40,986 nt of DNA from Candidatus Bathyarchaeia archaeon. GTDB lineage: Archaea > Thermoproteota > Bathyarchaeia > Bathyarchaeales > Bathycorpusculaceae. A program made the position numbers and the translations under genes. The stretch covers positions 1 through 40,986 of the forward strand of contig JBEKKX010000021.1 of the NCBI GenBank assembly GCA_050010515.1, in the 5' to 3' direction. Each line of letters starts with the position of its first letter. The first letter of the stretch is position 1. The notes beneath the pieces were generated by a model. The model was not told where the DNA came from. It searched no databases and saw nothing but the letters and a program-made list of their open reading frames with translations. Of this stretch, positions 5,408 through 37,983 are shown in pieces.

Positions 5408-5857
5408 ATGGAGAAGCAAATGAATAAACGATTAAAATTTGGATTAATAATTGTGATATTGGTAGCAGTCGCTGTTTTTGCGGCTTTTTGGGCATTAGTA
5501 TTGCGTCAGCAGCAATTTCCCGGTTTTCAACAAAGCCGAGTTCCACCGCCGCGCGCTATTCCGGGCGACTTCCAGTATTTCTATGTTGCAAATACAATAA
5601 TCTCTACGATCAATATAGCGCTCTTAGTAATCTTAGCACTAATTTACTTTAATATCTATATCAAAACGCGTTCCCCATTCACAATCGGACTCGTAATTTT
5701 TGCTTTAGTCTTCCTAGTACAAAACGTGACATCAAGTCCCTTTATAACATCGCCATTCGGATTTAGAGCTTATGGACTTGGGCCATTCGCGTTTCTGCCA
5801 GGCCTGTTCGAGTTCTTTGCATTAACTATACTGCTGTACCTAAGCATCAAATACTAG
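5408..5857 (+). CDS. Hypothetical 4-TM membrane protein, probably co-transcribed with the regulator
   Basis: Four hydrophobic segments; starts 19 nt after the regulator stop. Confidence 0.8.
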   Translation: MEKQMNKRLKFGLIIVILVAVAVFAAFWALVLRQQQFPGFQQSRVPPPRAIPGDFQYFYVANTIISTINIALLVILALIYFNIYIKTRSPFTIGLVIFALVFLVQNVTSSPFITSPFGFRAYGLGPFAFLPGLFEFFALTILLYLSIKY

Positions 5858-6181
5858 GAAAACATTGCAGCCTAAAGATAATTTACCTATTTAACAAAGC
5901 GCAATTCGTTTAGGCATGCCTTTGGGTCAAATATGGAAAAAATTATTTTATGGAATACTAATAATGATTGAATTGCTGATTGTAAATCGAGAGGCTATTT
6001 CTACGCAAAAGCAATGAGGTACTACTAAGGTTTGGTTAAGCTTTGCTGCAAGCTAAAGCCAGCAAGACTAAACTTTAGAGCGCCTTTTCGAAAGGGATAA
6101 CAAGCGTTAAGTGTACGTAGGGCAAAAAATAAATCGTTAGTCAAACAAGTTTCCTCTGGTCCTTGCTCTTCGCTGTAAAAC

Positions 6182-7350: not shown

Positions 7351-8541
7351 TTATTCTTTTCGTATTACCTCAAAACTTCTTGGATCGCCTTCTAGTAGAC
7401 CTGCCAGCTGAGTAATAAAATTCAGCGTTACCGTTAGGTAGCTTGCTAAAGCACCTGCTAGGCCATGTTTCCAGCCCATGCATTTTCCTATGGCATAAGC
7501 TCTCATTCCGAACCAAATCGCAAACGAAATAAAAGTAAGGGGCAAGAGCACTGTCGGTATACTAAAGATGCCTAAATAATATAACGGCAATCCTAACATT
7601 GCGATGGAATATAGCCACACTCCTGAAAAGCCAATGAAACCCAACCTTAACCTATTAGGGAGAGGCAGCATTTTTTTGTTTATTATTCTGATTTCGCCCC
7701 AAACCCATCTGCGCCTTTGTTTTATTGCGTCAGTGAAAGTTAACGGCGGCATTATGTATATTTGTTTTTCAGAATTAAAAATTGTGAAACCCATTAATGA
7801 TGCTTTGTGGAAGTAAAAGGAATCTTCACTACTTATCAGCTTTTCTTTATTGTTATGAGTATATTCGCTTATGTCATAAGAAACCGCCCTGTCAACTTCA
7901 CTATTCATCCATGTTCCTTCCCCATGAGCCCACAGAGGTTTTCCAATGTTAGTGAAAAAGTTGCAGAAGATACCGCAGGCAACGCAACGTTCATAGTCAA
8001 GGATTGTGTTCCAACCGCCATTCGGTCGGGGAGTTATGGTTCCTATGGAAATGTCTGCATTAATGATTAAACTTTCTTTTATGAATTCGGAACTAGGCAG
8101 GGCGTCGTCGTCTCCTTGGACCAAAAGGTAGTTAGATTCCAACGTGCCGTCAGCCACCATTTTTTGTCTTACCTGGCGAGCGTATTCTAAAGCGCGGCCT
8201 TTGTACAAGTCTTCACAATTAAAATCGGCAGGAACGACAATAACATTGTCGCAGACATATTCAGTTTTGTGTGTGTCCCCATCTTCGATTACTACCCAAG
8301 TTTTCAAGGGGACAGTAAGTTTGTAGTTTTTCACCGCTTCAAAAATTTTGTTTACTGTCTGAACATTACCTATGGTGGGTATCTGAAAGATTATCTTACC
8401 AACTTTCTTTTGAGTTTGCTCGTCTTCCTTAGTTAGAGTTAACTTTCTTCTCCAGTTGAAGATTTTTCCGAACACTAAGATGGAAAAGTAGAGAAGAGGT
8501 GACAGCCAAATCGCCGAAATGACATAATTAAGTATTAACAT
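7351..8541 (-). CDS. Membrane GT2 glycosyltransferase (egghead/BRE-3-like)
   Basis: YKGRALEYA, DDD, HGEG, SED and KQRRRW motifs with flanking TMs. Confidence 0.8.
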   Translation of the reverse strand: MLILNYVISAIWLSPLLYFSILVFGKIFNWRRKLTLTKEDEQTQKKVGKIIFQIPTIGNVQTVNKIFEAVKNYKLTVPLKTWVVIEDGDTHKTEYVCDNVIVVPADFNCEDLYKGRALEYARQVRQKMVADGTLESNYLLVQGDDDALPSSEFIKESLIINADISIGTITPRPNGGWNTILDYERCVACGIFCNFFTNIGKPLWAHGEGTWMNSEVDRAVSYDISEYTHNNKEKLISSEDSFYFHKASLMGFTIFNSEKQIYIMPPLTFTDAIKQRRRWVWGEIRIINKKMLPLPNRLRLGFIGFSGVWLYSIAMLGLPLYYLGIFSIPTVLLPLTFISFAIWFGMRAYAIGKCMGWKHGLAGALASYLTVTLNFITQLAGLLEGDPRSFEVIRKE

Positions 8542-8758
8542 GCCTGTGCATCAATCCCTTAAAATTATGTTTTCCTAGAGCACACAACAATGGATTTAAG
8601 TCATCACTAAGAAGAGAGGCAATCAACTTATCCATGCATGTTGGAAGACATTTTTCCTCAAAGGAGTTAATGGTCTTGAAGGTTTCATACGTAAAAACCC
8701 TACCATCAGTATAAAGCCAAAACCCAGCCTTAAACTTAGCGTTCAAGCCCCATCTCAC
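8528..8758 (-). CDS. Small hypothetical protein
   Basis: ORF overlapping the GT2 start by 14 nt; no recognisable motif. Confidence 0.35.
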   Translation of the reverse strand: MRWGLNAKFKAGFWLYTDGRVFTYETFKTINSFEEKCLPTCMDKLIASLLSDDLNPLLCALGKHNFKGLMHRHVNT

Positions 8759-9017
8759 TTCTTATCAATGTTCCTTTGTGTAAACCTAATTCTTAAAAGC
8801 TTTGCTCTAAAATCTCTAGCCAATCTATCCCTTGGTAAAACCAACCAATTAAAAGCTAAACTAACCATGCAAGATTGGCTTAATCTAAAACGTTTGCGCT
8901 TTGCTTATGGATTTTAAAATGCTGAAATCACGATGCTTGCCTACGGGAAAAAATCAAACTATGAATCGGAATAGACAAATGTCCAAAAATATACAAAAAT
9001 ACTAAAAAACAAAAAGG

Positions 9018-9102
9018 CGCCGGGAATGGGATTTGAACCCATGCGGACCAGAAGGTCCACGGGCTCTCAAGGCCCGCGCATTAACCACTCTGCCATCCCG
9101 GC
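9018..9102 (-). tRNA. tRNA-Ser(TGA)
   Basis: Reverse complement gives GCCGGGA/TCCCGGC acceptor stem, anticodon arm CGGGC-CT TGA GA-GCCCG, long variable arm GGACC/GGTCC, GGTTCAAATCC. Confidence 0.96.
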
Positions 9103-9194
9103 TCTTTTTAGTGTAATGAGGATGGTTGTTTATTTCTGTTTTTCCTTAGTGAAAACTCAGTAAAGATAATAAAGCAGTAAACGTATGGGCGTTC

Positions 9195-9587
9195 ATGGCA
9201 AAAACTGCAGCTGTGTCTATGAGTCAGGAGTTGTTGGATTCAATTTTTGAGGGGGCAAAACGGCTTTATCCACGGGAGACGATTTTGTTTCTTAGAGGTA
9301 AAAAGGTTAAGGATGTTGTTCGTATTGTTGACCTTGTGGTGCCGCCGTTGGCTACTTATGGGCATGGGTTTGCTAATTATCAGCTTCATTTGTTGCCGAT
9401 GGATTTCTCTTTGGTAGGCACTGTTCATTCGCATCCGTCAGGTAACACAACGCCTTCGGACGTGGATTTTAACCATTTCTTTGGGCGAATCCTCATGATT
9501 GTAGGTTACCCTTATGCAAGTGAGCAGAATGTTAGTGTGTATAATTCTTGTGGGGAAAAATTGCCCATAGAGGTAACTAAGGAGTAA
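9195..9587 (+). CDS. JAB1/MPN/Mov34 (JAMM) metalloprotease
   Basis: N-terminal Glu (YPRE) and HSHPSGNTTPSDVD matching HxH-x7-S-x2-D. Confidence 0.9.
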   Translation: MAKTAAVSMSQELLDSIFEGAKRLYPRETILFLRGKKVKDVVRIVDLVVPPLATYGHGFANYQLHLLPMDFSLVGTVHSHPSGNTTPSDVDFNHFFGRILMIVGYPYASEQNVSVYNSCGEKLPIEVTKE

Positions 9588-9939
9588 CTGCTCCCCTAAG
9601 CGCGTATGCTTTGTAGGCTTCGATAAATTCTATGGCGAATTTGTCAGCGTTTTTCTCTGTGCCCCTGTGCATTTTATCGACCGCTTTACTGCGTAGGTGA
9701 TGATAAAACTCGTGCAGAATAACAAAGGGATTAACCACCACGTCGCTGTTTAGAACTGAAATGGTTTCGTTCTTAGAGGTGTAACAGCCGAACGCTTTAA
9801 TTTTGTGTCCCTTTGGTAAACCTACTTTTAGTTTGGGAACGTTCACCTTATAGTTTTTCGCCAGTAACACGAGTGCTTCTTCAGGTTTTCCATTGAGAAT
9901 AAGCCAGACTACCAGTGGTTTGAAGTTGTCCTGCGCCAT
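9577..9939 (-). CDS. Hypothetical zincin-like protein
   Basis: HEFYH (HExxH) followed by E..AD.FA. Confidence 0.7.
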   Translation of the reverse strand: MAQDNFKPLVVWLILNGKPEEALVLLAKNYKVNVPKLKVGLPKGHKIKAFGCYTSKNETISVLNSDVVVNPFVILHEFYHHLRSKAVDKMHRGTEKNADKFAIEFIEAYKAYALRGAVTP

Positions 9940-10006
9940 TGTTTTGTCAGCAATAAAGAGTTTCTGTGCTTAATTAACTACGCTAAAAAGAACGGAGTCT
10001 TAGATG

Positions 10007-11257
10007 TTACTCGCCATATGTGCCTCTTCTGATCTTCTCAGCCAACAAATGAATAAACTCAATCGGCCAAACATCATCGCACACATCGTCAGTCAATATT
10101 TTTCGTTGATGATACATAGAAATTAAATCATTTTTCAGCAGAAGTATTAAGAGGAACTGGTGACCGTAGGTTCTTTTGAATAGTGCATATTTGCGAGCTT
10201 GCTTTTTAGTCATTTCAAAATGTGGTTCAAGAACTATTTTTCTCCCCTGAACTGTTTTTTCTAAAATAAAATCCGGCGTATAAACTTCATTATTCGGCAA
10301 GGGGAAACTAATCGTTTCATAACCATAAGCAATGTGCATCCTTAAAAGAACGAGAGCGGTTTTTTTCTCCCATCCGCTTTTGTAGCGGCTCATTTTTTGG
10401 TAATAAGCTTGGGACTGACCAGTTATTTTTTGCATTCGGTCAAGAAAATCAAGTGCTGTTTTCAACGTGTACCGGTTTAGTGTTTTTTGTCTAAGCCATC
10501 TGCCTAAGAGGAAGAAGGGATAATCAACCTTTGCGGGGTCTTTTGGAAAGAGCTGTTTTGCAAAGTCAGTTATTTTTTGCCTTGCCATTGCTGCTGTGTG
10601 TTCGTCTCTCCATAGTGATGGCGAAGCTGAGTTTATTATCCCCAGGCTCGCTGCTACGTTGGCGTTTTCTTTGGTCAATGGAACGTAGAGGTCTTCTGGT
10701 AAAAGATGGTCGTAGATTTGCAGGTCAGGTTGAGGTCGCACCATCCACCGCATGTAAATCCACGCCTTATCTACGTGTGGTCCGTTAATTGCCTTGATGT
10801 TTTTTGCGATGTCTTCAACGAAATCCTTGGGCTTACTAAATTTTTGAGCATATTTTAGCAAATTTTTTTCTGCGTTAGTTTTAACAAATATGTTGATGGA
10901 TGCCATGATTTCTGATGCCGCTTTTTTGTTTGGGCCCAAGTCATAATAAAAATCAGATTTCACGATTTCTTCTTCAAAAATATGTGCTTTTTTGATTTCT
11001 AAAAGGCTGTTGCCAAAGGCTTCATGGAGATATGACAGTAGCATTCTAGCGTTTTCAGGGTAACCTACCACTGTATCATCAAGTATAGATGCAGCCAGTA
11101 AAAAGTAGTGAGCAATAGTTTTCCGCTCTTCATAACTTTCGGAGTACGGATTAAAAGGCAACCTTGGACTCATACGTCGGTCCCATTGGATATCAACAAC
11201 GTTAGAGTTCTTGTTAATGAAGTCAACAAGTAAAGAGAGCACTTCGTCAGTTGCCAT
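10007..11257 (-). CDS. DUF2400/TIGR02757-like domain fused to a T7 endonuclease I-like PD-(D/E)xK domain
   Basis: MRWMVR...LYVPL...FPKDPAKVDYPFF; C-terminal KSGWEK...YE...YTPDFIL...LEPH. Confidence 0.7.
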   Translation of the reverse strand: MATDEVLSLLVDFINKNSNVVDIQWDRRMSPRLPFNPYSESYEERKTIAHYFLLAASILDDTVVGYPENARMLLSYLHEAFGNSLLEIKKAHIFEEEIVKSDFYYDLGPNKKAASEIMASINIFVKTNAEKNLLKYAQKFSKPKDFVEDIAKNIKAINGPHVDKAWIYMRWMVRPQPDLQIYDHLLPEDLYVPLTKENANVAASLGIINSASPSLWRDEHTAAMARQKITDFAKQLFPKDPAKVDYPFFLLGRWLRQKTLNRYTLKTALDFLDRMQKITGQSQAYYQKMSRYKSGWEKKTALVLLRMHIAYGYETISFPLPNNEVYTPDFILEKTVQGRKIVLEPHFEMTKKQARKYALFKRTYGHQFLLILLLKNDLISMYHQRKILTDDVCDDVWPIEFIHLLAEKIRRGTYGE

Positions 11258-11460
11258 AGCCTTTTCCGCCTGAATTATTACATATATGCATTGAGTAACT
11301 TAAAACTCCTATTATGATAATCGACAATTTAATAAGAAATATTTTTTTTACCTTATTACAATTAAGAAATAGTTAATAGAAGCGAGAATTTTGAATATGC
11401 ATTACAGCGAAAAAGACGAAGCGCCTATATAGGAAAACACTGTAAAAATTAAGGGCATGT

Positions 11461-11535
11461 GGGCCGGTCGTCTAGCCTGGTTAGGACATCTGCTTGACGT
11501 GCAGAAGGTCGCCGGTCCGAATCCGGTCCGGCCCA
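11461..11535 (+). tRNA. tRNA-Val(GAC)
   Basis: GGGCCGG/CCGGCCC acceptor stem; TCTGC-TT GAC GT-GCAGA anticodon arm; T-loop reads TCCGAAT. Confidence 0.95.
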
Positions 11536-12100
11536 CCTCAAACCAATCCGAGACATTTCCTTTGGCATTGTGAGTGAGTAAATTGATTTTTAGTGATCAA
11601 AAAACGGAAAACCGAGAAACCAACAAACCAGAATGAATTTTGCTCCCGCTTCGGACCCTTTGTCTTTCGCGCGGCGCGCTATGAATCTTTGCTGAGTGCT
11701 TTTTAGGAAAGCCTGCTGATTACTTGTTATCGATTAGTAATGCATTTTTTCAGTAGAGCGTAAGCATGTGAGCACTATAAGAATTATGAGCCTTATTCTA
11801 TTGGGTTTAAGTCCTTTCCAATTTAAAATAAAAAACAAAACCTTGAAAAAATACTGCAAAAACCATTTTTAGGAACAAACATGCGCGCTTTTTGAGTGTG
11901 AGTTATAGTTTAATCGTTAAGGTTGAGAAGATATATAGAAAATTGCAATACCGAAAGGCTTTATATACCATTAATTTTTGAGAAAAATTTAAGCAATATC
12001 TTAAACTCAAAAAGTCGCGCGGCACGCTTGGTAGGTTTTATAAGTTCAGACGTTTATACAATTAGCTGTTTCTGAAAAATTTTAGGAGAAAAGACTAAAA

Positions 12101-12871
12101 ATGCCTGTTAAAATCAAGCGATATGGATGGGTTCCGGACCTGCCCGATCATCGAGACTTTTTGTATGCGGTTCCAACTGAGGCCCTTGTCCGTCTTCCTC
12201 CAAGTTTCGACCTGCGAGATCAATATCAATTTCCTCCCATATATGACCAGGGTGAGTTGGGAAGTTGCTCTGCCAACGCTATTGCAGGAGCTGTTGAGTT
12301 TGATCTGATAAAACAGAAACAAAAACGCGTCTTCATTCCATCGCGGCTTTTCCTTTATTACAACGAGCGCGCTATGGAGGGGACTGTGACTTCAGATTCT
12401 GGGGGTCAAATTCGAGATGGCATCAAGAGTGAGGCAAAGCAGGGGGACTGCCCCGAGAATCTTTGGCCATATGACATTACAAAATTTGCTGTGAAACCAC
12501 CGAAACAGTGCTATGATAATGCTTTGAAATACAAGGTCATTAATTATCAAAGGCTTGTTCAAGATCTTAACCAGCTTAAGGGATGCTTGTTTTCGGGTTA
12601 CCCATTCGTCTTTGGGTTCACTGTCTATGCAAGCTTCGAAAGCCCACAAGTTGAGCAGACTGGCCATGCTCCTATGCCGGCGCCAGGAGAACAGGTGATA
12701 GGAGGACACGCTGTGATGGCGGTCGGGTACGACAATTCCAATCAATGGTTCATTGTGAGAAACTCATGGGGAGAGGGCTGGGGCATGGAAGGTTACTTTA
12801 CGCTTCCTTACGCGTACTTGCTCAACCAGAACCTATCCAGCGATTTTTGGACAATAAGAGTGGTGAGTTGA
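12101..12871 (+). CDS. C1 family papain-like cysteine peptidase (xylellain-like)
   Basis: DQGELGSC (Cys), GGHAV (His), RNSWG (Asn); no signal peptide. Confidence 0.93.
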   Translation: MPVKIKRYGWVPDLPDHRDFLYAVPTEALVRLPPSFDLRDQYQFPPIYDQGELGSCSANAIAGAVEFDLIKQKQKRVFIPSRLFLYYNERAMEGTVTSDSGGQIRDGIKSEAKQGDCPENLWPYDITKFAVKPPKQCYDNALKYKVINYQRLVQDLNQLKGCLFSGYPFVFGFTVYASFESPQVEQTGHAPMPAPGEQVIGGHAVMAVGYDNSNQWFIVRNSWGEGWGMEGYFTLPYAYLLNQNLSSDFWTIRVVS

Positions 12872-12956
12872 AAAGTTTTGACTTCAACTTTTTCCCCCGT
12901 TGCGAGCTGGAAAAATAATCATTGCATAAGTGCATGCGCTTTAAGGAGGTGAAAAA

Positions 12957-13118
12957 GTGACTAAGGGAAATTGTCCAGTATGTGATAAGCCGATGGAAGC
13001 AAGACCAATTAAAATAACGGTGAGGGGAAAAGAAATCAAAGATACGGTATATGTGTGCAGTTCTTCAACTTGCAAGGGCGCTTTTATCCCAGAAAGCATT
13101 TTTGGTGTGCGCCCATGA
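12957..13118 (+). CDS. Small 53-aa zinc-finger protein, absent from the ORF track
   Basis: GGAGGTG RBS, GTG start; MTKGNCPVCDKPMEARPIKITVRGKEIKDTVYVCSSSTCKGAFIPESIFGVRP. Confidence 0.7.
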   Translation: MTKGNCPVCDKPMEARPIKITVRGKEIKDTVYVCSSSTCKGAFIPESIFGVRP

Positions 13119-13452
13119 TAGTGACGCGGTTTTCTCCCAACCTTGACTGCATGCTTCATTTGGGTTCAGCAATTGACTGTTTCTAATGAGTTCTCTAAGG
13201 TATATACTCAACATCTTTTTTTCTCAAAATTTTCATCAAGATAGTGGCTACGACAGAGAAAACTGCTTGCGTGTGCTCGTGAATTATTGCATGCAACAGC
13301 GATGGAAGGCATAGTCGGAGAAGTTGCAGCGGCAATACCTGTTCCTATAAACTGACGGCAACATGGGAAATTCTTCAAATAGGCTACGGAAAAACGTTTT
13401 ATGTGCGCGTAACATTATTATTGAGTTATGAATTCGCGATAGCACGTAGGTT

Positions 13453-16400
13453 ATGCTCATGGATTTTAGCCAAGATGAAAGGGACTACAAATGGTTTGAA
13501 GCAGCAAAATCCTATGAGCAAGCATTGCACTCCCGCTCCTTACCTCCTTCTTCCGCCGCGGATTATTGGCAGAGAATAGGCTACTGTTATGACTTAGCTT
13601 CTAGGCAGACAAGGGATATAGAGGGATTTAAGAATCTGAGACGGCTGGCAGTCGAAGCCTACGAAAAGGCTGCCGGACTTTTCATTGAAGGTCTGACCTC
13701 AGAAAATCAAAAGAGCTCACAATGTCTCGCCCTCGCTGAGTATGCGCGTTCTTGGCTGGCATCCAGCTCTTCTGAGAAACAAAAAACATTGGATAAATGT
13801 CATGACCTGGCAAAAGCAGCCCTAGAGATCTTCAAGAACTCTGGAAACATAATAGAATACGGTAAGACCACTAACATCCTAAATCAATGCCTATTTGACC
13901 GTTTGTACATTGCAGGTACCAGAGAAGAAGTTAAAGCGATCTCCAAAGAAGGAATAGACACTGCGGACGCCGCCATAACCGCTCTATCTAAGCTTGAAAA
14001 CAAGAATGAGCTTCTTCTTGCGTTCTCTTGGGCCAGTCTTCAAACCTGGTATGCTGCAAATATTTCTGAGCAAGAAAAACAGGCAAAGACACTTGCAAAC
14101 AGATGCGTGAGTTACTCAGAGAACGCGTTAAAACTTTCCAAACAAGTCGAAAACCCATATTATAGGGTGATGGCACTGTGGGCAGAAACTCTGTCAACTC
14201 TCTTTTTCACAGACAACATCGAGTCTTCTAGAGAATATGCGAAAGAAATGCTTGAACAAGCCTCAGTGATAAGAGACAACTACTTCAAAGGCATTGCAGG
14301 TTATCTTCTTGCGTTCGTCTCAGATTGGATGATTCCTGGAGAAGCAAACCCCGACAAAAAGAAAAATAGACACGAAGAGATCCTCAAGTATGCAGAAGAA
14401 GCCATCCAACACCTTCAATTGGTAAACCAAGACACGGCGATCGCAGAAACCTACTTATTCTACGTCGAAAGCTACTCGTGTATAGCACGAGAATTTGCCA
14501 CCAACGCGTCGGAGAAACTCTCCTTTTCAAGAAAAGCGATAGAAACCGGTGAAAAAGGACTGGATCACGCGTTACGCTCCGGATCACTTGATGCGTTGGG
14601 GTCCACCTTGCACGCATTGAGCAAGGCATATCATTATTACTCAAAACTTGAACCTGAAAAAGAAGAAAAACAGCAACAGCTAAGAAATGCTCTAGGTTTC
14701 AGAAAAGAATACTTAAACACCGTACAAAAAGGGTTCCCAGCAAACACTTGGGTACTCGGTGTGGGCCTAGTCTGTGAAGCTCAGATAGAAGCAGACCTTG
14801 CTGCACTGGAAAAAGAAGAAAGTAAAATCGCCCTTCTTCAAGACGCTATCGCCGATATGAACGATGGAGTTACACATTGCAAGAATTGGATAGAAACCCG
14901 CGCTGTTCCCTCACTAATAGCAATTGTCGCTGGAATGGAGGATGCATTTGCTGAAATGTTGGACGAAGGCTATCAGTTAACCTCAGATAAAGAGAATCTA
15001 AAAAAGGCCAACGAAGTCTATGGAAACGCTGCAGAAGATTTCAAAAAAGTTGACTTGCCAAGCCGCGTCGCAGAGTCCTACTGGAAAATCGCCAGAAACC
15101 TCGATCTCCTCGGCGAGCATAATCAAGCTGCTGGAAACTTTGAAAAAGGCTTCGCTGGATACAAAGCAGCAGCTCAAAAAATCAGCCAGTTCAGCGACTT
15201 CTACCTCGACTACGCATCCTACATGAAGGCATGGAGCGAAATTGAAACAGCAAAACTCGAACACAACAACGAAAAATACACGGACGCGATGAATCATTAC
15301 GAAAAAGCATCAAGTCTTCTAAAACGATCAAAATCATGGAACTATCTGTCTTCAAACTTTTATGCATGGTCACTTCTGGAACAAGCAGAAGACCTAAGCA
15401 TAAAAGACAATTGCAAAGAGTCAATAGTGACCTTCGAGAAAGCCATCAAATTCCTGCGAGACTCCGAGCGAATCCTTCTCGCCGAACTGGGCAGAATCGG
15501 CAAAACAGACGAACAAAACCTAGTCAAAAGACTAATCCAAGCCTCAAAAATCAGGGTTGAGTACAGTAATGGAAGAATTTCTATAGAAGAAGCGAAAATT
15601 CTCGACAGACAAGGCGACCACGGAGCCAGTTCCCAAAAATATGAATCTGCAGCAGAAACCTTCCAAAAAATATTGCAGACCGATCAAGAGCAAACGGGGA
15701 AAGAAGTCAGACCACTCGTTTACCTCTGCCAAGCATGGCAAAAAATGACCCTAGCGGAAGCAAGAAGTTCCCCAATAATGTACGAGGAAGCTGCAGACCT
15801 CTTCACCCTCGCAAATGAACACGCAACCAAAGAATCAGCAAGTCTGCTTGCGTTGGGACACAGCAGCTTCTGCAAAGCATTGGAAGCCGGGACAGAATTT
15901 GAGATCACGAGAAACACAACTATGTACGAAGAAACCGCCAAACACATGAGTTCTGCCGCAAGCTACTATCTCCGAGCTGGTTTCGAGTCAGCTTCTGATT
16001 ACGCAAAAGCCACGCAACACCTTTTCGACGCTTACGTCTACATGGACAGCGCTAAACGAGAAAAAGATCCTGCAAAAGAAGCAAAGTTTTATTTAATGGC
16101 CGAAAAAGTGCTGCAAATTTCAGCCGCATGCTTCGCAAAAGCAGGGCACATCGAGAAAAACGAGCAAGTCCAGCGCCTCCTTAGGAAAGTCAGAGACGAC
16201 AAAGAACTAGCACTAACCCTCAGCGAAGTCTTCCATGCACCAACCATCACATCATCCACGGCGAGTTTCTCAACGATAGAACCAAACGAAGAAAAAGCAG
16301 TAGGCCTAGAAAGATTCGAACATGCAGAGATACAAGCTAAACTCATCCAACACGAAAATGAAACCAAAGTAGGAGAAAACGTAAACCTCAAAATCCAAAT

Positions 16401-26434: not shown

Positions 26435-28595
26435 CCAGATTATTTTTTGATACTTGCTGTCCGGCAGCAGGCAAGTACATTTGCTGGGTGTACTCTTTCA
26501 TCATTCGGCAAGCGCTGAAAGCGGGGGTGATTGTTTTTATTGCTTCTTTAACGATTTTCATCCATCGATGCGGTATACCCCTGCGGTCTAGGTCATAGTA
26601 GAGAGGCGCGATTTCGTTTTCGAGTAGGTTATAGAGTGATTCGGCATCTCTTTTATCTTCCTCCTCCGGGCTGCCCACCTGAAAATCGCCGATTGCCCAC
26701 CCATTTTTGCCATTGTATGCTTCATCCCACCATCCGTCGCGAACGCTAAGGTTGATTACACCGTTCATTGAAGCTTTCATTCCGCTGGTTCCACATGCTT
26801 CCTGTAGTCGTCTGGGCGTGTTGAGCCAAACATCGACGCCTCGGACGAGTTCTCGCGCTACATTGAGGTCGTAGTCTTCAACAAAGGCAATGCGCCCTTG
26901 AAATCCTCTGTCCAAAACTGCATGATATACCTGCTTGAGAAGCTGTTTTGACTGGTAATCTGCTGGATGGGATTTGCCGGCAAAAATTATCTGCAAAGGT
27001 CTCACCGAATTTGTTATTATGCGTTTTAGCCGTTCAATGTCGGATAAAACTAAGTAGGGTCGTTTGTATTCGGTAAATCGGCGGGCAAAAGCAATAGTTA
27101 AAGCGTATGGGTCTAGTAGTGAACCCATGGCAATCACTTGTTGAGTGGTAACTGCGTCTTGCGTCCAGCGTCGTTGGGCTCTGTCTTGTATGGTATTTAT
27201 CAATCGGGTTTTTAATGTTTGACGCACCTGCCACAATTCTTCGTCAGGTATGTCATCTACGCATTTCCAATATTCTTCGTCATCTTGTTTTTGAAGCCAT
27301 TCAGAACCAAGGTGCTTTTCACAGAGCCCCCTGATTTCTGGCGCTTGCCAACTGGGTAAGTGCACACCGTTAGTTATGGATACAATCGGTACCTGTTCTT
27401 CCTTCTTATCTGGCCAAAGGACCTGCCACATTCTCCGGGTTACTTTGCCGTGTAGTCTGGATACAGCGTTGGATTGACCGGATAGACGAAGCGCAAAGGC
27501 TGTAAGGTTGAATTTTCCAGGACCAAAGCCTTCATACTGTCCCAGCTTCAGGAAAGTTTCTCTATCGATTCCGAGGGGCTCCCAAAGGTTACGTGAGTAG
27601 CGGTCCATTAATTGAAAGCTGAAGATATGATGACCAGCTGAAACTGGGGTGTGAGTGGTGAAGACTGTGCATCTGCGTACGTTTTCGATGGCTGAATTTA
27701 AAGAGGCGCCGTTTGCTCGCTCTAGTCGGAGTCGTTCAAGCATCATGAAAGCCGTGTGGTCTTCGTTAACATGCCACACAACTGGCTCTATATGAAGTTC
27801 GCGCAGTGTACGCACTCCGCAAACGCCTAGAACGATTAGTTGGCGTAGCCGTTCTTCTTGGTCGGCTGTGTACAGGCGCGCTGACAACATTCTATCTTCA
27901 GGACAGTTTTCTTCAACATTAGTATCCATCAGGTATAGGTTAACGCGACCAACACGTACCTGCCACACTTTAACATACAGTTGGCGGTCGGCGAGTTGAA
28001 TCGGAATAAGAGGTCCGCATCTGTAAGGCCAAGCGCAAGGAGAGATAGGTGCATCATTGAAGTTCAGTTGTATGTAGTCTTCTTGTTGGTCTCCTTCGGA
28101 AGATATGCGCTGGCGAAAGTAGCCTTGAGGATACATGAATCCGACAGCGACTAGTGGTATCCCACGGTCCGAGCATTCTTCACATATGTCTCCTGCTAAG
28201 ACGCCCAAGCCGCCTGCATATATAGGTAGGGAATTGTGGATAGCGTACTCAGCTGAGAAATACGCGATTTGCCCATTTGGTTTGCTTGGGTTTGTTTGGC
28301 CACACCAGTCTTGACCTCTTGACATTTCTTCGTCAAACTTTAACATTACTGTGTCGTAGAGTTCTAAAAAAGCTGGATCTCTTGCCGCTGCCTCTAGCTT
28401 TTCTGTGCTGATGCTGCGCAGTTGCTTGACTGGGTTATGTTCGCTGGTTCGCCAAAGGGCATAATCTAAAGAGCGAAAAATCTGTCGTCCTTCCTCATGC
28501 CAGCTCCACCACAAGTTGTTGGCAAGCTCGAATAGTCTGCTGATTCTTGGAGGAAGCTTGGGCGATTCATTTTCTTGATTACTTGCTGAGTTCAT
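26403..28595 (-). CDS. glgP: Alpha-glucan (glycogen/starch) phosphorylase
   Basis: YAGGLGVLAGD, FTTHTP, ARRFTEYKR, EACGTSGMKA (PLP lysine). Confidence 0.95.
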   Translation of the reverse strand: MNSASNQENESPKLPPRISRLFELANNLWWSWHEEGRQIFRSLDYALWRTSEHNPVKQLRSISTEKLEAAARDPAFLELYDTVMLKFDEEMSRGQDWCGQTNPSKPNGQIAYFSAEYAIHNSLPIYAGGLGVLAGDICEECSDRGIPLVAVGFMYPQGYFRQRISSEGDQQEDYIQLNFNDAPISPCAWPYRCGPLIPIQLADRQLYVKVWQVRVGRVNLYLMDTNVEENCPEDRMLSARLYTADQEERLRQLIVLGVCGVRTLRELHIEPVVWHVNEDHTAFMMLERLRLERANGASLNSAIENVRRCTVFTTHTPVSAGHHIFSFQLMDRYSRNLWEPLGIDRETFLKLGQYEGFGPGKFNLTAFALRLSGQSNAVSRLHGKVTRRMWQVLWPDKKEEQVPIVSITNGVHLPSWQAPEIRGLCEKHLGSEWLQKQDDEEYWKCVDDIPDEELWQVRQTLKTRLINTIQDRAQRRWTQDAVTTQQVIAMGSLLDPYALTIAFARRFTEYKRPYLVLSDIERLKRIITNSVRPLQIIFAGKSHPADYQSKQLLKQVYHAVLDRGFQGRIAFVEDYDLNVARELVRGVDVWLNTPRRLQEACGTSGMKASMNGVINLSVRDGWWDEAYNGKNGWAIGDFQVGSPEEEDKRDAESLYNLLENEIAPLYYDLDRRGIPHRWMKIVKEAIKTITPAFSACRMMKEYTQQMYLPAAGQQVSKNNLVEGKEVGNTK

Positions 28596-28934
28596 AAAGT
28601 TAGGACATTCCTCTGCCGTGATATTTTTTTGAGCAAGTCAAACTAGAATAAATTTCAGGCAACTTGTGACGCAAAATGCGCATAACTTAATAGTTTAAGC
28701 GCCAACTTATATACGTTGTACGTGCAGTAACAAAGTTGAAAGTGATGGCACAGCTAAACAAGCAATCGAAGCTCATCTAGTGCCAGACATTGAGAAAGAC
28801 GAGGCGTTATTGATACATTCGGAAGCTGGTCTTTACAAAAATCTTGAGCGGGGTAGGGTATCAATTTTGTTGATGAATTTCACTAGCTAAATTGAAAGAT
28901 ATCAGTGGGAAAGCATTATTATTGCTAAGTTTTT

Positions 28935-28998
28935 GGGGTCTGTCTAAATTTCATTCTTCATCTTTTCCGATCAGACTGGGACGGCGACATCATCCCCC
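28935..28998 (-). ncRNA. Box C/D guide sRNA, predicted to guide 2'-O-methylation of 23S rRNA G2251 (E. coli numbering)
   Basis: Reverse complement: GGGGG-ATGATG(C)-TCGCCGTCCCAGT-CTGA(D')-TCGGAAAAGA-TGAAGA(C')-ATGAAATTTAGA-CAGA(D)-CCCC; terminal stem; D' guide is complementary to the P-loop CUGGGGCGG. Confidence 0.75.
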
Positions 28999-29025
28999 AT
29001 AGATAGAACAACACCCCAGTCAAAT

Positions 29026-29562
29026 ATGAACATTGTCAACGTAATGTTATGGATGAAAAGAAACGCCTATGAAGAATCAACCATTAAGAAAACTGCAAAA
29101 CTGTTAAGACACTTACAGAGAAACTGCAATACAAAAGAACCCGAAGAAGTCAAACTATACATAGCAAATAAAACGTGCGGAAATGGACACAAAGAAAACT
29201 TAGTCGAAGCTTACGCATGTTTCATTAACTCTATAGGTGCAACATGGGTACAGCCCTTTTATCAAAGATACGACAAAAAACGCAGAGCACCAAAAGAAGA
29301 ACTTGTGGATTTCCTAATCAATCACGCAAGAATAGAAATGTCTCTTAAACTATCTATAAGCAAAGATTTAGGACAACGCCCAATAGAACTAACATGGCTA
29401 ACAATCAAAGACATCGATTTAACCACAGGCATAGTCTCAATCACAGGAGCTAAACACACAATTGGCAGAGAAGGAAAACTAAAGACCTCAACATTAGGAC
29501 AATTAAGAGTCTTTGTAGATAGAAAACAACTAAAATTAACTGAGATGAAATATATTGTCTAA
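29026..29562 (+). pseudogene. C-terminally truncated tyrosine recombinase/integrase
   Basis: LGQRPIELTWLTIKDID (catalytic Arg box) and GAK (Lys) present; no HxxR or catalytic Tyr region. Confidence 0.8.
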
Positions 29563-30142
29563 ATTCATAATTCATAAGAAGCATACGCTGATTATAATTT
29601 ATGGAATTAAAATGTTCGGAAAAAGTAAAAGACAGATAAAAAATGTGACATTCGTACAACCACACGAAGGAGAGGTATATTTCTACACTCCAATAGCATA
29701 CGCCATTAATTTGCGGGATTCTAAGGAAAAAGAAGGAAAACAGGTTTTCACAGATTCTGATTTGGCACTCGCAGGTAAACTAAAGCTAATTTTTGAACGC
29801 GAAAAAATGACTTGGTTTAAAATCAAAGAGGAGAAATCAACAACAACACTAAAAGACGAACACTTTTTTGCACTGTATTATTATCCTCGTCGTTTGGTGG
29901 CGAGTCGGGCTTACTCCTCCGATGAGAAAGCTACATTGCAGGATATAAAAAAACTGTTTGATTTCATTGTTACCGAAGACCAGATTAGATTTGCAGAGGT
30001 TCAACAGACCAAATCGCCGTCAGCATATGCGCCCATCACAAGAGAGCCAAACGAAGAATCGGAAGCTATTTCTATAGTAACAGCAGAGCCAAGCGAACAA
30101 TTGCAAGCTATTCCTACAGAAACAGCGAATAAGAAGCAGTAA
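29555..30142 (+). CDS. Hypothetical cargo protein of the element (start may be the ATG at 29612)
   Basis: 195-aa ORF; no recognisable motif. Confidence 0.6.
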   Translation: MSKFIIHKKHTLIIIYGIKMFGKSKRQIKNVTFVQPHEGEVYFYTPIAYAINLRDSKEKEGKQVFTDSDLALAGKLKLIFEREKMTWFKIKEEKSTTTLKDEHFFALYYYPRRLVASRAYSSDEKATLQDIKKLFDFIVTEDQIRFAEVQQTKSPSAYAPITREPNEESEAISIVTAEPSEQLQAIPTETANKKQ

Positions 30143-30794
30143 ACTGGTGCCATCCACACAACACTCAGCGGGAACACACCCCATTAAGGGGATTCGCTCT
30201 GCGCGCGCAACGCTCTAAATTACATTCTACGATTGAATTTCTCCACCATTCTCTAAATCTTCCTCAGTAACAAAACCAAACAAATTACTTTGCCCTAAGG
30301 CTGGGACGGCAACATCATCCCCCGAAAATATCTATCAGCTCAGGATGAAATAAGCCTTCCTAAGAGCAAAGAAAAAACAGTGTGGCTATGATGGAACTTC
30401 CTGTTTCCAGATGTTACAAAAGCGAAATGAAGTTTATTAACGAGCGATTTCCAAATTTAATCGGAGAAGGCAAAGTGAATTTTAGTATTGGAAAGTGCTT
30501 TAAAGCGATTAAAAGAGCGCTCAAGAAAGAGATTTCGGATTATTATTTTACGATCTTTTCTAGAAAGGCTGGTGCGCCCATATGCATCACACTATGCATA
30601 TTAACAATCTTAGCCTATGCTGTATCACACTTATAGGAAATGAGAGTAAGCAAAGCATACACATAGTCGTATTGCAGTTTAAGCAAACGTTCCATCAAGA
30701 GCCACTAAATTTGCACAATGTACCAACATGATTTGGCAGTTTTAAATGATTTTTTCCAAAGAAAATTAAAGCTAATATATAAATTAAAAAATGA

Positions 30795-31028
30795 GTGTAT
30801 ATTTAGTTCTTGTTTTTTCTTTTTTAATGTTTTTTTTCTACATCCAAAAAAGCAGGTTTGTACATAGAAAAAGCACCATTTCATGTTGATAGTGCGGGGA
30901 TTAATTCTATGTTGAACTATGTTGAATCATATTTGAAGCATATTAGAAGCATATAGTAGACCGGGGAGTAGGCTATGAGAGCAAACAAATACCCTATCTA
31001 AGACAAAAGCCAAGAGTTAAATACATAC
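30795..31028 (-). repeat. ~230-bp dispersed repeat, copy 1
   Basis: Reverse-complement match to 37597-37825, including 46 identical nt (30917-30962 vs 37657-37702). Confidence 0.9.
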
Positions 31029-31056
31029 AAAAATGAAAAGCAGTCTTTGCTTTCTT

Positions 31057-32112
31057 TTAATTCAGCACAATTATGTTTGGACTTTTTCTTCTCTTGATGA
31101 CCAATCCAATTATTACGGCTCCGAGGATGATTGCTGCGGCTATGACTGGAAGGTATTGACCCATCATTGACAATACGGGTGTTTGGGTTGGCGCATGTGT
31201 TGCTGCTGGTGTAGGTGTTGCAGTGAGCGTTGGAGTAGGTGTCAATGTTGGTGTTGGAGTGGGCGTGTTAATTGCGAAGCTCGCAGTGATTGTGCCTGTT
31301 CCGTTTATTGTTGCCGTTGATGAAGCAGCGGTGGCATTGTTAAACGTAATTGATCCTGTGTTGGAAGACCAAGAGGAGAAAGTGTAACCAGCGTTAGGTG
31401 TAGCCGTTATGGGAAGGGAACTCGCATTCTCCCAAACATTAGAACCAGTTGGACTAGTCGATCCGCCTCCACTCACTGCAAAACTCACATTGTACTGGTG
31501 ATAATACAACGGAGAAACAGCAGTTGATGAACTAACAGTGCCTGAAGGTCCAGTCGTAGCAATCCACTGCTCAGTACCTGAACCAGCAACAATCGTGCTA
31601 TTAACACTCCAGCTTGAACCAGCATCCAACCAAACGTGCTGAATTGAAGTCGTCAGTGTAGTGTAAGAAGGCGAACCCAATGAAGTTCCTGTAAGAACAA
31701 CAGGGGCTGAAGGAGTCGTGCTGTCAGAAGTAGAGTAGCTCGCAGCCACCAGATATTGGTTATATACCGAGAATGTCGCAGACCCAAAATTTGAACTGGC
31801 GTCAGTAACATTGACTGGTTGGCCGCCGGCCGCGGAAGCAGGAACAGTAAACGTCACACCCGACGGAATATTACCTGATCCATCAGTAGTCGTCGTACCA
31901 CTCAAAGGCACCGACGAACCATCAAAAGTAGCTGAAAACGCCGAGTTAGCGGCAAAACCACTACCCGAAACCGTAACCGTAGAACCAACATGACCGCTAA
32001 TCGGACTCAAAGAAATAGTAGGACCTGATTGAGCTTTGACTTGCATACTCGCGAAGGCGTAGATTGATAACGAAATTAGAAATACAATCATTAGGATTTG
32101 TAGTTTCTTCAT
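31057..32112 (-). CDS. Cell-surface protein: signal peptide, Ig-like and InlB-B-like repeats, Pro/Thr linker, C-terminal TM anchor
   Basis: GSTVTVSGSGFAANS; ITATPNAGYTFSSW...ITASF; (TP)n; TM followed by KRRK. Confidence 0.85.
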   Translation of the reverse strand: MKKLQILMIVFLISLSIYAFASMQVKAQSGPTISLSPISGHVGSTVTVSGSGFAANSAFSATFDGSSVPLSGTTTTDGSGNIPSGVTFTVPASAAGGQPVNVTDASSNFGSATFSVYNQYLVAASYSTSDSTTPSAPVVLTGTSLGSPSYTTLTTSIQHVWLDAGSSWSVNSTIVAGSGTEQWIATTGPSGTVSSSTAVSPLYYHQYNVSFAVSGGGSTSPTGSNVWENASSLPITATPNAGYTFSSWSSNTGSITFNNATAASSTATINGTGTITASFAINTPTPTPTLTPTPTLTATPTPAATHAPTQTPVLSMMGQYLPVIAAAIILGAVIIGLVIKRRKSPNIIVLN

Positions 32113-37596: not shown

Positions 37597-37825
37597 GTAT
37601 GTATTTAGCTCTCGTTTTTTGTCTTAGGATATTTATTTGTGCTCAAGCCTACCCCGGGTCTACTATATGCTTCTAATATGCTTCAAATATGATTCAACAT
37701 AGATGTGCATGGACTCAACTACGCGCACTTTCAACATGAAACAGTGCTTTTTCAACATACAAACCTGCTGTTTTCGATGTAGAGGAAAAGCAGTAGAAAA
37801 GAAAAAACAAGAACTAAATATACAC
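37597..37825 (+). repeat. ~230-bp dispersed repeat, copy 2 (inverted relative to copy 1)
   Basis: Reverse-complement match to 30795-31028. Confidence 0.9.
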
Positions 37826-37983
37826 AATTTTTTTAATGATGCAATTCAGGAAATAGACAACGGATAACGAATCAGCCTGACTCGGTGGCTCCAAAGTTTT
37901 GGCTAGAAGTGATTTCTTGTGGTCTGTTCAGAAATCAAATTCCGATGGGTTGGATTAAAATTTAATCTTTTTCCCTGTCCTTT

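Follow-up and report, generated by a model that had tools for sequence, protein, structure and literature searches.

Integration of mobile elements into transfer RNA (tRNA) and transfer-messenger RNA (tmRNA) genes is textbook knowledge. In the classical form a short core with the same sequence in element and host is situated within a conserved small RNA gene, the insert has direct repeats on both sides, the gene is restored at one of the two junctions, and tandem and decayed insertions gather at the hot-spot. The locus described here shares all of these traits. It lies in a stretch of 40,986 nucleotides (the window, contig JBEKKX010000021.1 of GenBank assembly GCA_050010515.1) from a Candidatus Bathyarchaeia archaeon, in which a degraded integrative element of 1.3 kb adjoins the gene of a box C/D guide small RNA (sRNA). 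Comparison of sequences among related genomes indicates that this sRNA gene is very probably the attachment (att) site of the element and of its relatives in other Bathyarchaeia. Unlike in classical tRNA and tmRNA integration, it is the 5′ and not the 3′ end of the gene that is duplicated, so that the promoter would be replaced. The classical type is also present in the same genomes, as sister integrases (27-34% identity) were located at tRNA genes in 8 of 12 loci. For the locus itself a tRNA-derived att site was rejected, since ARAGORN detected no tRNA there.

The closest described parallel, likened by description, would be the pTN3-like integrases of Thermococcales. In the sections of PMC8371274 that deal with them, these are likewise tyrosine integrases that act on a stable-RNA gene in its 5′ part, in their case on the 5′ half of a tRNA gene used as attB, and the intact gene is rebuilt at one junction, where it is expressed from element sequence and not from its original promoter. 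The locus in the window differs from them in its target, which is a box C/D guide sRNA and not a tRNA, and in the orientation of its integrase gene, which points away from the sRNA gene. For the rebuilt RNA a separate, element-borne TATA-like box would be used and not the integrase promoter. The SSV-type (“suicidal”) integrases, with their attP inside the integrase gene, are likewise archaeal, belong to small plasmids or viruses and target RNA genes. An element in genome G003, with a C-terminal integrase fragment abutting the core, may be similar to these. In the main family, by contrast, the integrase is intact after integration (315 amino acids in genomes G008 and G010) and lies wholly beside the core.

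A literature search found no paper combining C/D or small nucleolar RNA (snoRNA) genes with integrase attachment sites. The targets named in a 2021 review of archaeal tyrosine recombinases are tRNA genes, intergenic sequences and protein-coding genes, and neither sRNA nor snoRNA occurs in the available portion of its text (PMC8371274). A survey of Thaumarchaeota, the main text of which has no occurrence of sRNA, counted 39 tRNA, 15 intergenic and 14 protein-gene targets. Some “intergenic” targets in Table S2 of PMC6563490 could be unannotated sRNA genes. In its accessible sections, a paper on Bathyarchaeia viruses mentions integrases and no att sites. On the RNA side, a 2021 review of archaeal C/D sRNAs states, in the part available, that mobile features of these genes remain to be discovered, and the accessible text of a study of Pyrobaculum sRNAs contains neither “integrase” nor “integration” (PMC6009581). 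No role of C/D sRNA genes as integration sites is mentioned in the available parts of the C/D sRNA reviews that we consulted. The locus appears to be a hitherto undescribed case of classical site-specific integration into a stable RNA gene, extending a known principle to a new target class and adding promoter replacement.

The first-pass annotation of the window had placed 23-bp direct repeats at 28976-28998 and 30301-30323, with a tyrosine integrase remnant and one cargo open reading frame (ORF) between them, and this arrangement is present. The sequence CTGGGACGGCGACATCATCCCCC at 28976-28998 recurs at 30301-30323 with 22 of 23 positions identical and one G-to-A change. These were the only two matches of the 23-mer in the window at up to 3 mismatches, and the chance expectation was 0.00 (100 dinucleotide shuffles, none of which had two or more matches). 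A repeat search extended the pair to 42 nt at 79% identity. The two cores, both on the minus strand, bound the degraded body of the element (28999-30300, unstranded), with a core-to-core period of 1,325 bp. The integrase remnant (29026-29562, plus strand, 178 amino acids) corresponds to the N-terminal half of the protein and reads away from the sRNA, and the single cargo gene (29612-30142, plus strand) encodes 176 amino acids. Homologues of the cargo ORF, 73-75% identical, were found in other, larger elements of the family (loci L233, L194, L216 and L206). Its match to DUF5623 was below threshold (16.9 bits, cut-off 35), and it had no PHROG match and no usable match in the ESM Atlas.

The core at 28976-28998 (attR) is the 5′ part of a complete 64-nt box C/D sRNA gene on the minus strand (28935-28998), which forms the attR junction. 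Both the gene and the place of the repeat within it had been proposed earlier and can be read directly in the sequence. From its 5′ end the sRNA consists of a stem GGGGG (28994-28998), box C AUGAUGU (28987-28993), the 12-nt D′ guide CGCCGUCCCAGU (28975-28986), box D′ CUGA (28971-28974), the loop UCGGAAAAG (28962-28970), box C′ AUGAAGA (28955-28961), the 12-nt D guide AUGAAAUUUAGA (28943-28954), the box D variant CAGA (28939-28942) and the 3′ stem CCCC (28935-28938). With internal D′ and C′ boxes, two 12-nt guides, short terminal stems and a total of 64 nt, it has the make-up of a C/D sRNA, for which guide spacers of about 12 nt and lengths of about 50-70 nt are usual. In the archaeal consensus the box close to the 5′ end (box C) is RUGAUGA and the one close to the 3′ end (box D) is CUGA, and the two form a kink-turn (k-turn) with tandem G-A pairs. 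Box C AUGAUGU and box D CAGA are each one position off this consensus, and both keep their GA dinucleotides. The 23-bp core takes in the 5′ stem, the whole of box C and 11 of the 12 nt of the D′ guide. At the other junction the attL core (30301-30323, minus strand) is a truncated sRNA copy. Read from 30323 to 30301 this copy goes on as C-CUUA-GGGC, where the intact sRNA goes on as U-CUGA; the break at box D′, with CUUA in place of CUGA, is where the first-pass annotation had put it. Lacking box D′, the copy runs into the element arm CCUUAGGGCAAAG.

Empty and occupied versions of the site were found in related genomes. A systematic comparison of the flanks of 25 occupied loci yielded two such pairs. 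Locus L144, which has an integrase-bearing insert of 5.8 kb bounded by the 23-nt cores, was paired with the empty locus L042 of genome G030, the flanks being 95% and 93% identical over 300 nt each. Locus L199 (6.7 kb insert) was paired with the empty locus L122; the right flank was 99% identical over 300 nt, and the left flank matched over 64 nt only. The empty genomes of both pairs have their flanks 65 nt apart around one uninterrupted sRNA. In both occupied loci attL is composed of native upstream sequence, core and element arm, and attR of element arm, core, the rest of the sRNA and native downstream sequence. An empty-site allele had been expected in related genomes, and these pairs provide it twice. 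Together with the specificity of the integrase (see below), they support the proposal that the integrase targets the guide gene and duplicates its 5′ end.

The empty sites also bear on the possibility that the sRNA is not chromosomal but element cargo, and that the elements insert at some other sequence. Element-like sequence does lie upstream of the sRNA in most same-genus genomes, and an integrase, when present, is nearly always the neighbour of the sRNA. However, L042 and L122 hold a complete sRNA between native flanks with no element, and the attL arm bears only a 23-nt stump. The 3′ part of the sRNA moreover stays with conserved chromosomal neighbours, being joined to alpha-glucan phosphorylase in the window's own genome (G000) and in G004, G013, G020 and G021. 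A cargo origin of the sRNA is extremely improbable.

Elsewhere, the 23-bp core bounds elements of ~0.5-9 kb with full-length 315-amino-acid integrases. A partial sRNA copy followed by CCTTAGGG was found upstream of the intact sRNA in six genomes, at a distance of 1.3 kb in G000 (the window), 1.9 kb in G002 (a decayed copy), 7.0 kb in G003, 0.9 kb in G007, 4.7 kb in G008 and 3.9 kb in G010. In G003 a further partial copy with a different arm, 4.2 kb upstream, indicates a tandem array. This array spans positions 8347-15388 of locus L020 (G003:C1:1092000-1111900), with partial copies of 23 nt at 8347 and of 29 nt at 11140, the second of which includes box D′ and has the different arm, and with the intact sRNA at 15323, abutted by a C-terminal integrase fragment (residues ~196-314). 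An SSV-type split integrase was considered for this locus, and the N-terminal half was not found at the other junction.

A metagenome scan for the core followed by CCTTAGG (the CCTTAGGG arm) retrieved 97 contigs by that pattern. At least 20 of them also carry the full sRNA 0.5-9 kb downstream, often with an adjoining integrase, and about 11 have the order integrase-core-CCTTAGG, which corresponds to attP or to a tandem junction. In public genomes, ~30 of at least 120 loci among the matches listed had an integrase homologue directly upstream of the sRNA.

The native flank of the window was recovered in 13 other loci. It was followed by a truncated core copy in 11 of these (three without the first two or three G of the stem) and occurred without the core in L021 and L198. 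Different element arms follow the flank in different contigs, a pattern that points to independent and repeated insertions at one orthologous site. When the flank is compared with that of G004, the homology breaks off exactly at 30324/30325, where the partial copy has its outer edge. In L021 (G004:C21, ~2010-2030) and L198 the native flank passes directly into an element arm (TTAAGGCAAC...), the attL core having been deleted; L021 belongs to the closest relative, and a near-full-length integrase remains there. Two metagenome contigs, L245 and L251, were identical to the window across the whole element. They are probably from the same organism and add no independent support.

If considered by itself, the 23-nt repeat of the window could be a local partial duplication of the sRNA or a recombination scar, with the integrase fragment nearby by coincidence. 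The element measures only 1.3 kb, its integrase is truncated and cannot act, and no excised form was seen. This explanation is nevertheless very unlikely given that many genomes have the same junctions together with full-length integrases placed and oriented alike, that two empty-site pairs exist, that close integrase homologues occur only at this site and that the homology with the G004 flank stops precisely at the repeat boundary. The copy in the window is, on its sequence, a 1.3-kb defective relic of an integrated element.

The integrase ORF of the window aligns to residues ~25-190 of the 315-amino-acid integrases with 58-71% identity. It contains Arg I (R118; ..GQRPIELTWL..) and the Lys segment GAKHT.GREGKLK, and ends before the C-terminal half of the full-length relatives, YDFRR...LGHKD.RST..Y, so that the full catalytic set is absent. 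We take these segments to hold the catalytic residues Arg I, Lys, (H/x)xxR, His/Trp and the nucleophilic Tyr. Querying the window with the 315-amino-acid protein using tblastn recovered residues 20-194 only and no C-terminal remainder. Loss of the catalytic C-terminal half of its integrase leaves the element unable to move on its own. The fragment matched the Pfam family Phage_integrase (PF00589) below the cut-off (13 bits, E 0.087), whereas full-length relatives scored 29.8 and 38.2 bits (cut-off 27.1) and matched phrog_216 at E 7e-11. A sequence search of the PDB with the integrase gave 0 matches. Full-length 315-amino-acid integrases, lying beside the sRNA 5′ end and reading away from it, were found in G008 (L025, 10115-11062) and G010 (L026, 8882-9829). 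In G004 the tblastn match covers residues 24-284, and the ORF runs on past the catalytic Tyr.

The specificity of these integrases was assessed with a protein search of 41 whole genomes, which was independent of the sRNA pattern and is the sole evidence on specificity free of sampling bias. Seven of seven matches with at least 60% identity adjoin the sRNA; they come from six genomes (G008, G010, G004, G022 with two fragments, G000 and G021). The suggestion that full-length homologues would be found at this sRNA was thereby borne out. A C-terminal fragment with 39% identity, in G003, is also at the sRNA locus. The next-best integrases have at most 37% identity and are located elsewhere. Among 12 loci of these more distant relatives, a tRNA gene lies no more than ~100 nt from the integrase gene in eight, and an archaeal ribonuclease P (RNase P) RNA gene is the neighbour in two. 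No RNA was identified beside the integrase at the other two, nor beside a second integrase in locus L280. In a maximum-likelihood tree of 30 proteins, the 21 sRNA-adjacent integrases were on one side of a branch with 99/97 support, and those adjacent to tRNA or RNase P RNA genes were on the other.

The gene of RNase P RNA likewise appears to be used for attachment. Sister integrases (30-36% identity) are located at its 3′ end in L280 (G003:C1:930000-941000, 5615-5922 and 10437-10462) and L273 (G030:C44, 4006-5204), where the RNA genes scored 188.6 and 218.4 bits with Rfam. In L280 a stretch of 26 nt from the 3′ end of the RNase P RNA is repeated without mismatch 4.5 kb away. A literature search found no paper combining the RNase P RNA gene with integrase attachment.

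The sRNA is conserved. A DNA search of 41 relatives recovered orthologues with 82-94% identity in 21 of the 24 same-genus genomes, the three genomes without it being 56%, 58% and 88% complete. The search also recovered the 5′ half of the RNA in other families of the order, and among 16 genomes of these families the core was confirmed in 7. Nearly all public matches were Bathyarchaeia by their records. We gathered 115 distinct full-length copies from relatives, public genomes and metagenomes. The first 22 nt of the RNA and the box skeleton were partly imposed on these copies by the search pattern and regular expression, while the loop, the D guide and the variable box positions were free to differ. 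In the aligned copies the GA dinucleotides are invariant in all four boxes, and the loops and D guides are variable (70 variants of each). Box D was CAGA in 114 of the 115 copies, box D′ was CNGA in all of them (CUGA 88, CCGA 18, CGGA 8), box C′ was AUGA(A/G/C)GA and the length ranged between 61 and 68 nt. Positions 2-11 of the D′ guide were identical in every retrieved copy, partly by construction as the retrieval fixed GCCGTCCCAG; position 1 varied. The box motifs, for which lack of conservation in relatives had been named as a sign against the proposal, are conserved.

In the genome of the window (2.38 Mb) the sRNA was the sole match to a strict C/D/C′/D′ pattern with terminal stem, and a reversed-genome control gave none. 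Bathyarchaeia of this kind may have very few C/D guides; the pattern would miss degenerate ones. Genes for fibrillarin (323.5 bits) and Nop5 (242.7 bits) are adjacent on contig C12 of the same genome. At its gathering thresholds Rfam recovered two tRNAs in the window and no family at the sRNA. With E values up to 10, the C/D families sR11, sR7 and snoU31b aligned exactly to 28936-28997 on the minus strand, below threshold, matches which reflect box geometry only.

The D′ guide pairs at 11 of 12 positions, two of them G-U, with GCUGGGGCGGCA in the P-loop of the large-subunit (LSU) ribosomal RNA (rRNA) of G003, G014 and G040. The single mismatch is farthest from box D′. The fifth pair upstream of box D′ falls on the second G of GGGG, which by local alignment corresponds to G2251 of E. 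coli; direct numbering of rrlH from that species gave C2248-U2249-G2250-G2251. According to the parts of PMC11542601 used here, 2′-O-methylguanosine (Gm) 2251 is among the few 2′-O-methyls conserved across domains, and the corresponding Gm1950 of Haloarcula marismortui is made by archaeal fibrillarin (aFIB) and an sRNA (Table 1 therein). The sRNA of the window is thus predicted from its pairing to direct fibrillarin to 2′-O-methylate the 23S P-loop G equivalent to E. coli G2251. It would share with the archaeal P-loop Gm guides the target nucleotide and the mechanism (guide pairing, the N+5 rule, fibrillarin, Nop5 and L7Ae). The likeness to the H. marismortui guide is one of predicted target; the boxes differ (box D CAGA, box C AUGAUGU).

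The D guide of the window pairs 12/12 (two G-U) with the small-subunit (SSU) rRNA of G003 at position 1425, and the variant D guide of G003 itself pairs 11/12 at the same site. As the two guides are related by descent, this pairing is weaker evidence. The common D guide of other lineages (ACUCAUGACGGA) had no match of at least 11/12 in the three rRNA sets examined. In G003, G014 and G040, the genomes of which are closed or near-closed, the SSU and LSU rRNA genes are unlinked and lie hundreds of kilobases apart (loci L047-L052).

It could be argued that the 64-nt sequence is the att site and yet no working methylation guide, being instead a conserved non-coding element or another small RNA. The deviant box D in all copies save one, the absence of an above-threshold Rfam match, and a guide duplex with two G-U pairs and one mismatch would fit such a sequence. 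On the other hand, the GA dinucleotides needed for a k-turn and k-loop are kept in all four boxes, both spacers measure 12 nt and terminal stems are present. The constant part of the D′ guide (with the reservation on its retrieval made above), the N+5 target on the conserved Gm2251 site, the fibrillarin and Nop5 encoded in the genome and the sRNA's own B recognition element (BRE)/TATA-like box in element-free genomes also argue for a guide. We consider a non-guide sequence unlikely, and a functional C/D guide for the P-loop Gm, as judged from sequence, likely. That both hold jointly, the sRNA gene as the att site of the integrase clade and its RNA as a functional guide, we regard as quite probable.

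The position of the core within the RNA gene has consequences for transcription. Duplication of the 5′ end means that the rebuilt gene is cut off from the sequence that lay natively upstream of it, the reverse of the usual geometry at tRNA genes. In the window, the intact sRNA is preceded by element-derived sequence, as had been pointed out before, and this sequence holds a putative promoter (29012-29028, minus strand) with the TATA-like box CATATTTG at 29021-29028 (-30 to -23), which overlaps the ATG of the integrase gene, and the motif CTGGGGTG at 29012-29019 (-21 to -14). The native chromosomal TATA-like box GCTTATTTCAT (30345-30355, minus strand, -32 to -22) is now upstream of the truncated copy, in a flank that related contigs share. 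The truncated copy is followed closely, within the element, by a T-rich tract TTTGTTTGGTTTTGTT (30269-30284, minus strand), a candidate terminator; T-runs follow CCTTAGGGCAAAGTAATTTT in most attL arms. The tract after the stump could plausibly terminate transcription from the orphaned native promoter.

TATA-like boxes at about -34 to -22 were found in native upstream regions and element arms alike. At empty sites the native upstream region has a purine-rich stretch and a TATA-like box, for example caaagTTTATCTG in L042; under the archaeal promoter distance rule, a box so placed would set the start at the first G of the RNA. The element arm has such a box at the same distance, for example TTTATAAT in L144. 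We infer from this that a replacement promoter comes with the element. The motif CTGGGAYG, the reverse complement of the 3′ end of the core (the D′ guide), is located between the TATA-like box and the first nucleotide of the sRNA (about -21 to -14) in native as well as element arms (L025, L026, L042, L122 and others). It may act as an integrase site or a promoter element, or it may be a relic.

We suggest the following course of events. Small integrative elements carry a clade of tyrosine integrases for which a conserved box C/D sRNA gene of Bathyarchaeia would serve as attB. In the attP of such an element the sRNA would be represented by its initial 23 nt, from the 5′ stem to the eleventh nucleotide of the D′ guide. 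Recombination within the core would insert the element at the 5′ end of the sRNA gene, with a crossover that must lie somewhere within the 23-bp identity. At the far junction the native promoter would drive a 23-nt stump into the arm CCUUAGGG and the T-rich tract. At the near junction the full sRNA would be rebuilt behind element DNA with a new BRE/TATA-like promoter at the canonical distance, and the integrase gene starts 28-130 nt from the rebuilt sRNA in the opposite direction. In this scheme the anatomy and conservation of the sRNA, the occupied and empty pairs and the association of integrase and site come from comparison of sequences, whereas transcription, methylation, the promoter and terminator functions and the exact crossover point are deduced from them.

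Several observations weigh against this account, either as regards insertion or as regards the guide. Within the lineage of the window itself, none of the 13 other loci that match its flank is an empty allele. Viral contigs contained no match to an attP-type pattern (0) and no relative of the integrase protein. The 97 metagenome loci had no terminal repeats, no circular contig was found, and the attP-like contigs L178 and L212 overlap as a linear stretch of 5.9 kb with no wrap-around. Read contigs X17-X20 over 28000-31300 were fragmented, of low depth and without joints, and are uninformative on the empty site and on excision; no RNA run was among the 23 sequencing runs listed for this stretch. 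The sRNA-adjacent integrases in the tree came from loci fetched with the sRNA core, and the tree is unrooted. The presence of CTGGGAYG in both arm types blurs the boundary of the site and the extent of integrase recognition. As to the guide, the boxes are non-canonical (box D is CAGA and not CUGA, and box C ends in U), and the best scores of Rfam C/D families at the sRNA were 13.7-17.1 bits against thresholds of 37-39. The guide duplex is imperfect, and the rRNA sequences were taken from relatives, the window's genome being without an assembled LSU or SSU. By our calculation, chance alone would give about 0.7 matches of this quality (11/12 or better) across ~4.5 kb of rRNA, so the weight rests on the exact landing at G2251 and on guide conservation.

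The insertion of elements at this gene is widespread, being represented by ~100 metagenome contigs and many Bathyarchaeia genomes, and it provides a case of promoter replacement at an RNA gene, as far as promoter function can be deduced from the sequence. It may be that the whole integrase clade has become specialised on the guide gene, apparently one of very few of its kind in these genomes, and has occupied it so widely that the sRNA is transcribed from an element-donated promoter in most same-genus genomes, a tentative extension about which we have slightly more doubt than confidence. If so, the expression of a core ribosome-maturation factor would be under element-derived control. With the sister integrases at the RNase P RNA gene, the elements of Bathyarchaeia would then have landing pads in conserved small RNA genes of every kind. 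A conserved predicted guide for the P-loop Gm is also of interest in mesophilic archaea whose set of C/D sRNAs seems to be very small. The 23-bp site and the 315-amino-acid integrase are a candidate genetic tool for an uncultivated but abundant archaeal class.

The full-length element of 4.7 kb in G008 (L025, G008:C15) carries two further genes, at 11591-12502 and 12984-13976. One of its products is a HEPN-domain protein (Pfam 28.7 bits). For another, of 330 amino acids, the nearest named look-alikes in the ESM Atlas were rolling-circle Rep_1/HUH proteins (feature score 0.96, TM 0.44-0.48). Taken as a lead, this suggests that the elements may be small rolling-circle plasmids.

Two interspersed repeats were also detected in the window. 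A partly palindromic repeat of ~50 nt, GGCGGGGTAGGGTATCAATTT...AAATTGAAAG, is located at 28848-28898, just downstream of the sRNA 3′ end, and had 25 further BLAST matches in the window's genome and more in relatives. A second repeat of 140-230 nt, at 30780-31010 and 37617-37837, had 33 further matches in the same genome, and its summed contig depth was very high in runs from peat and wetland, reaching 2711. In other copies the end of the longer repeat adjoins the ~50-nt repeat, and both may be parts of one composite element.

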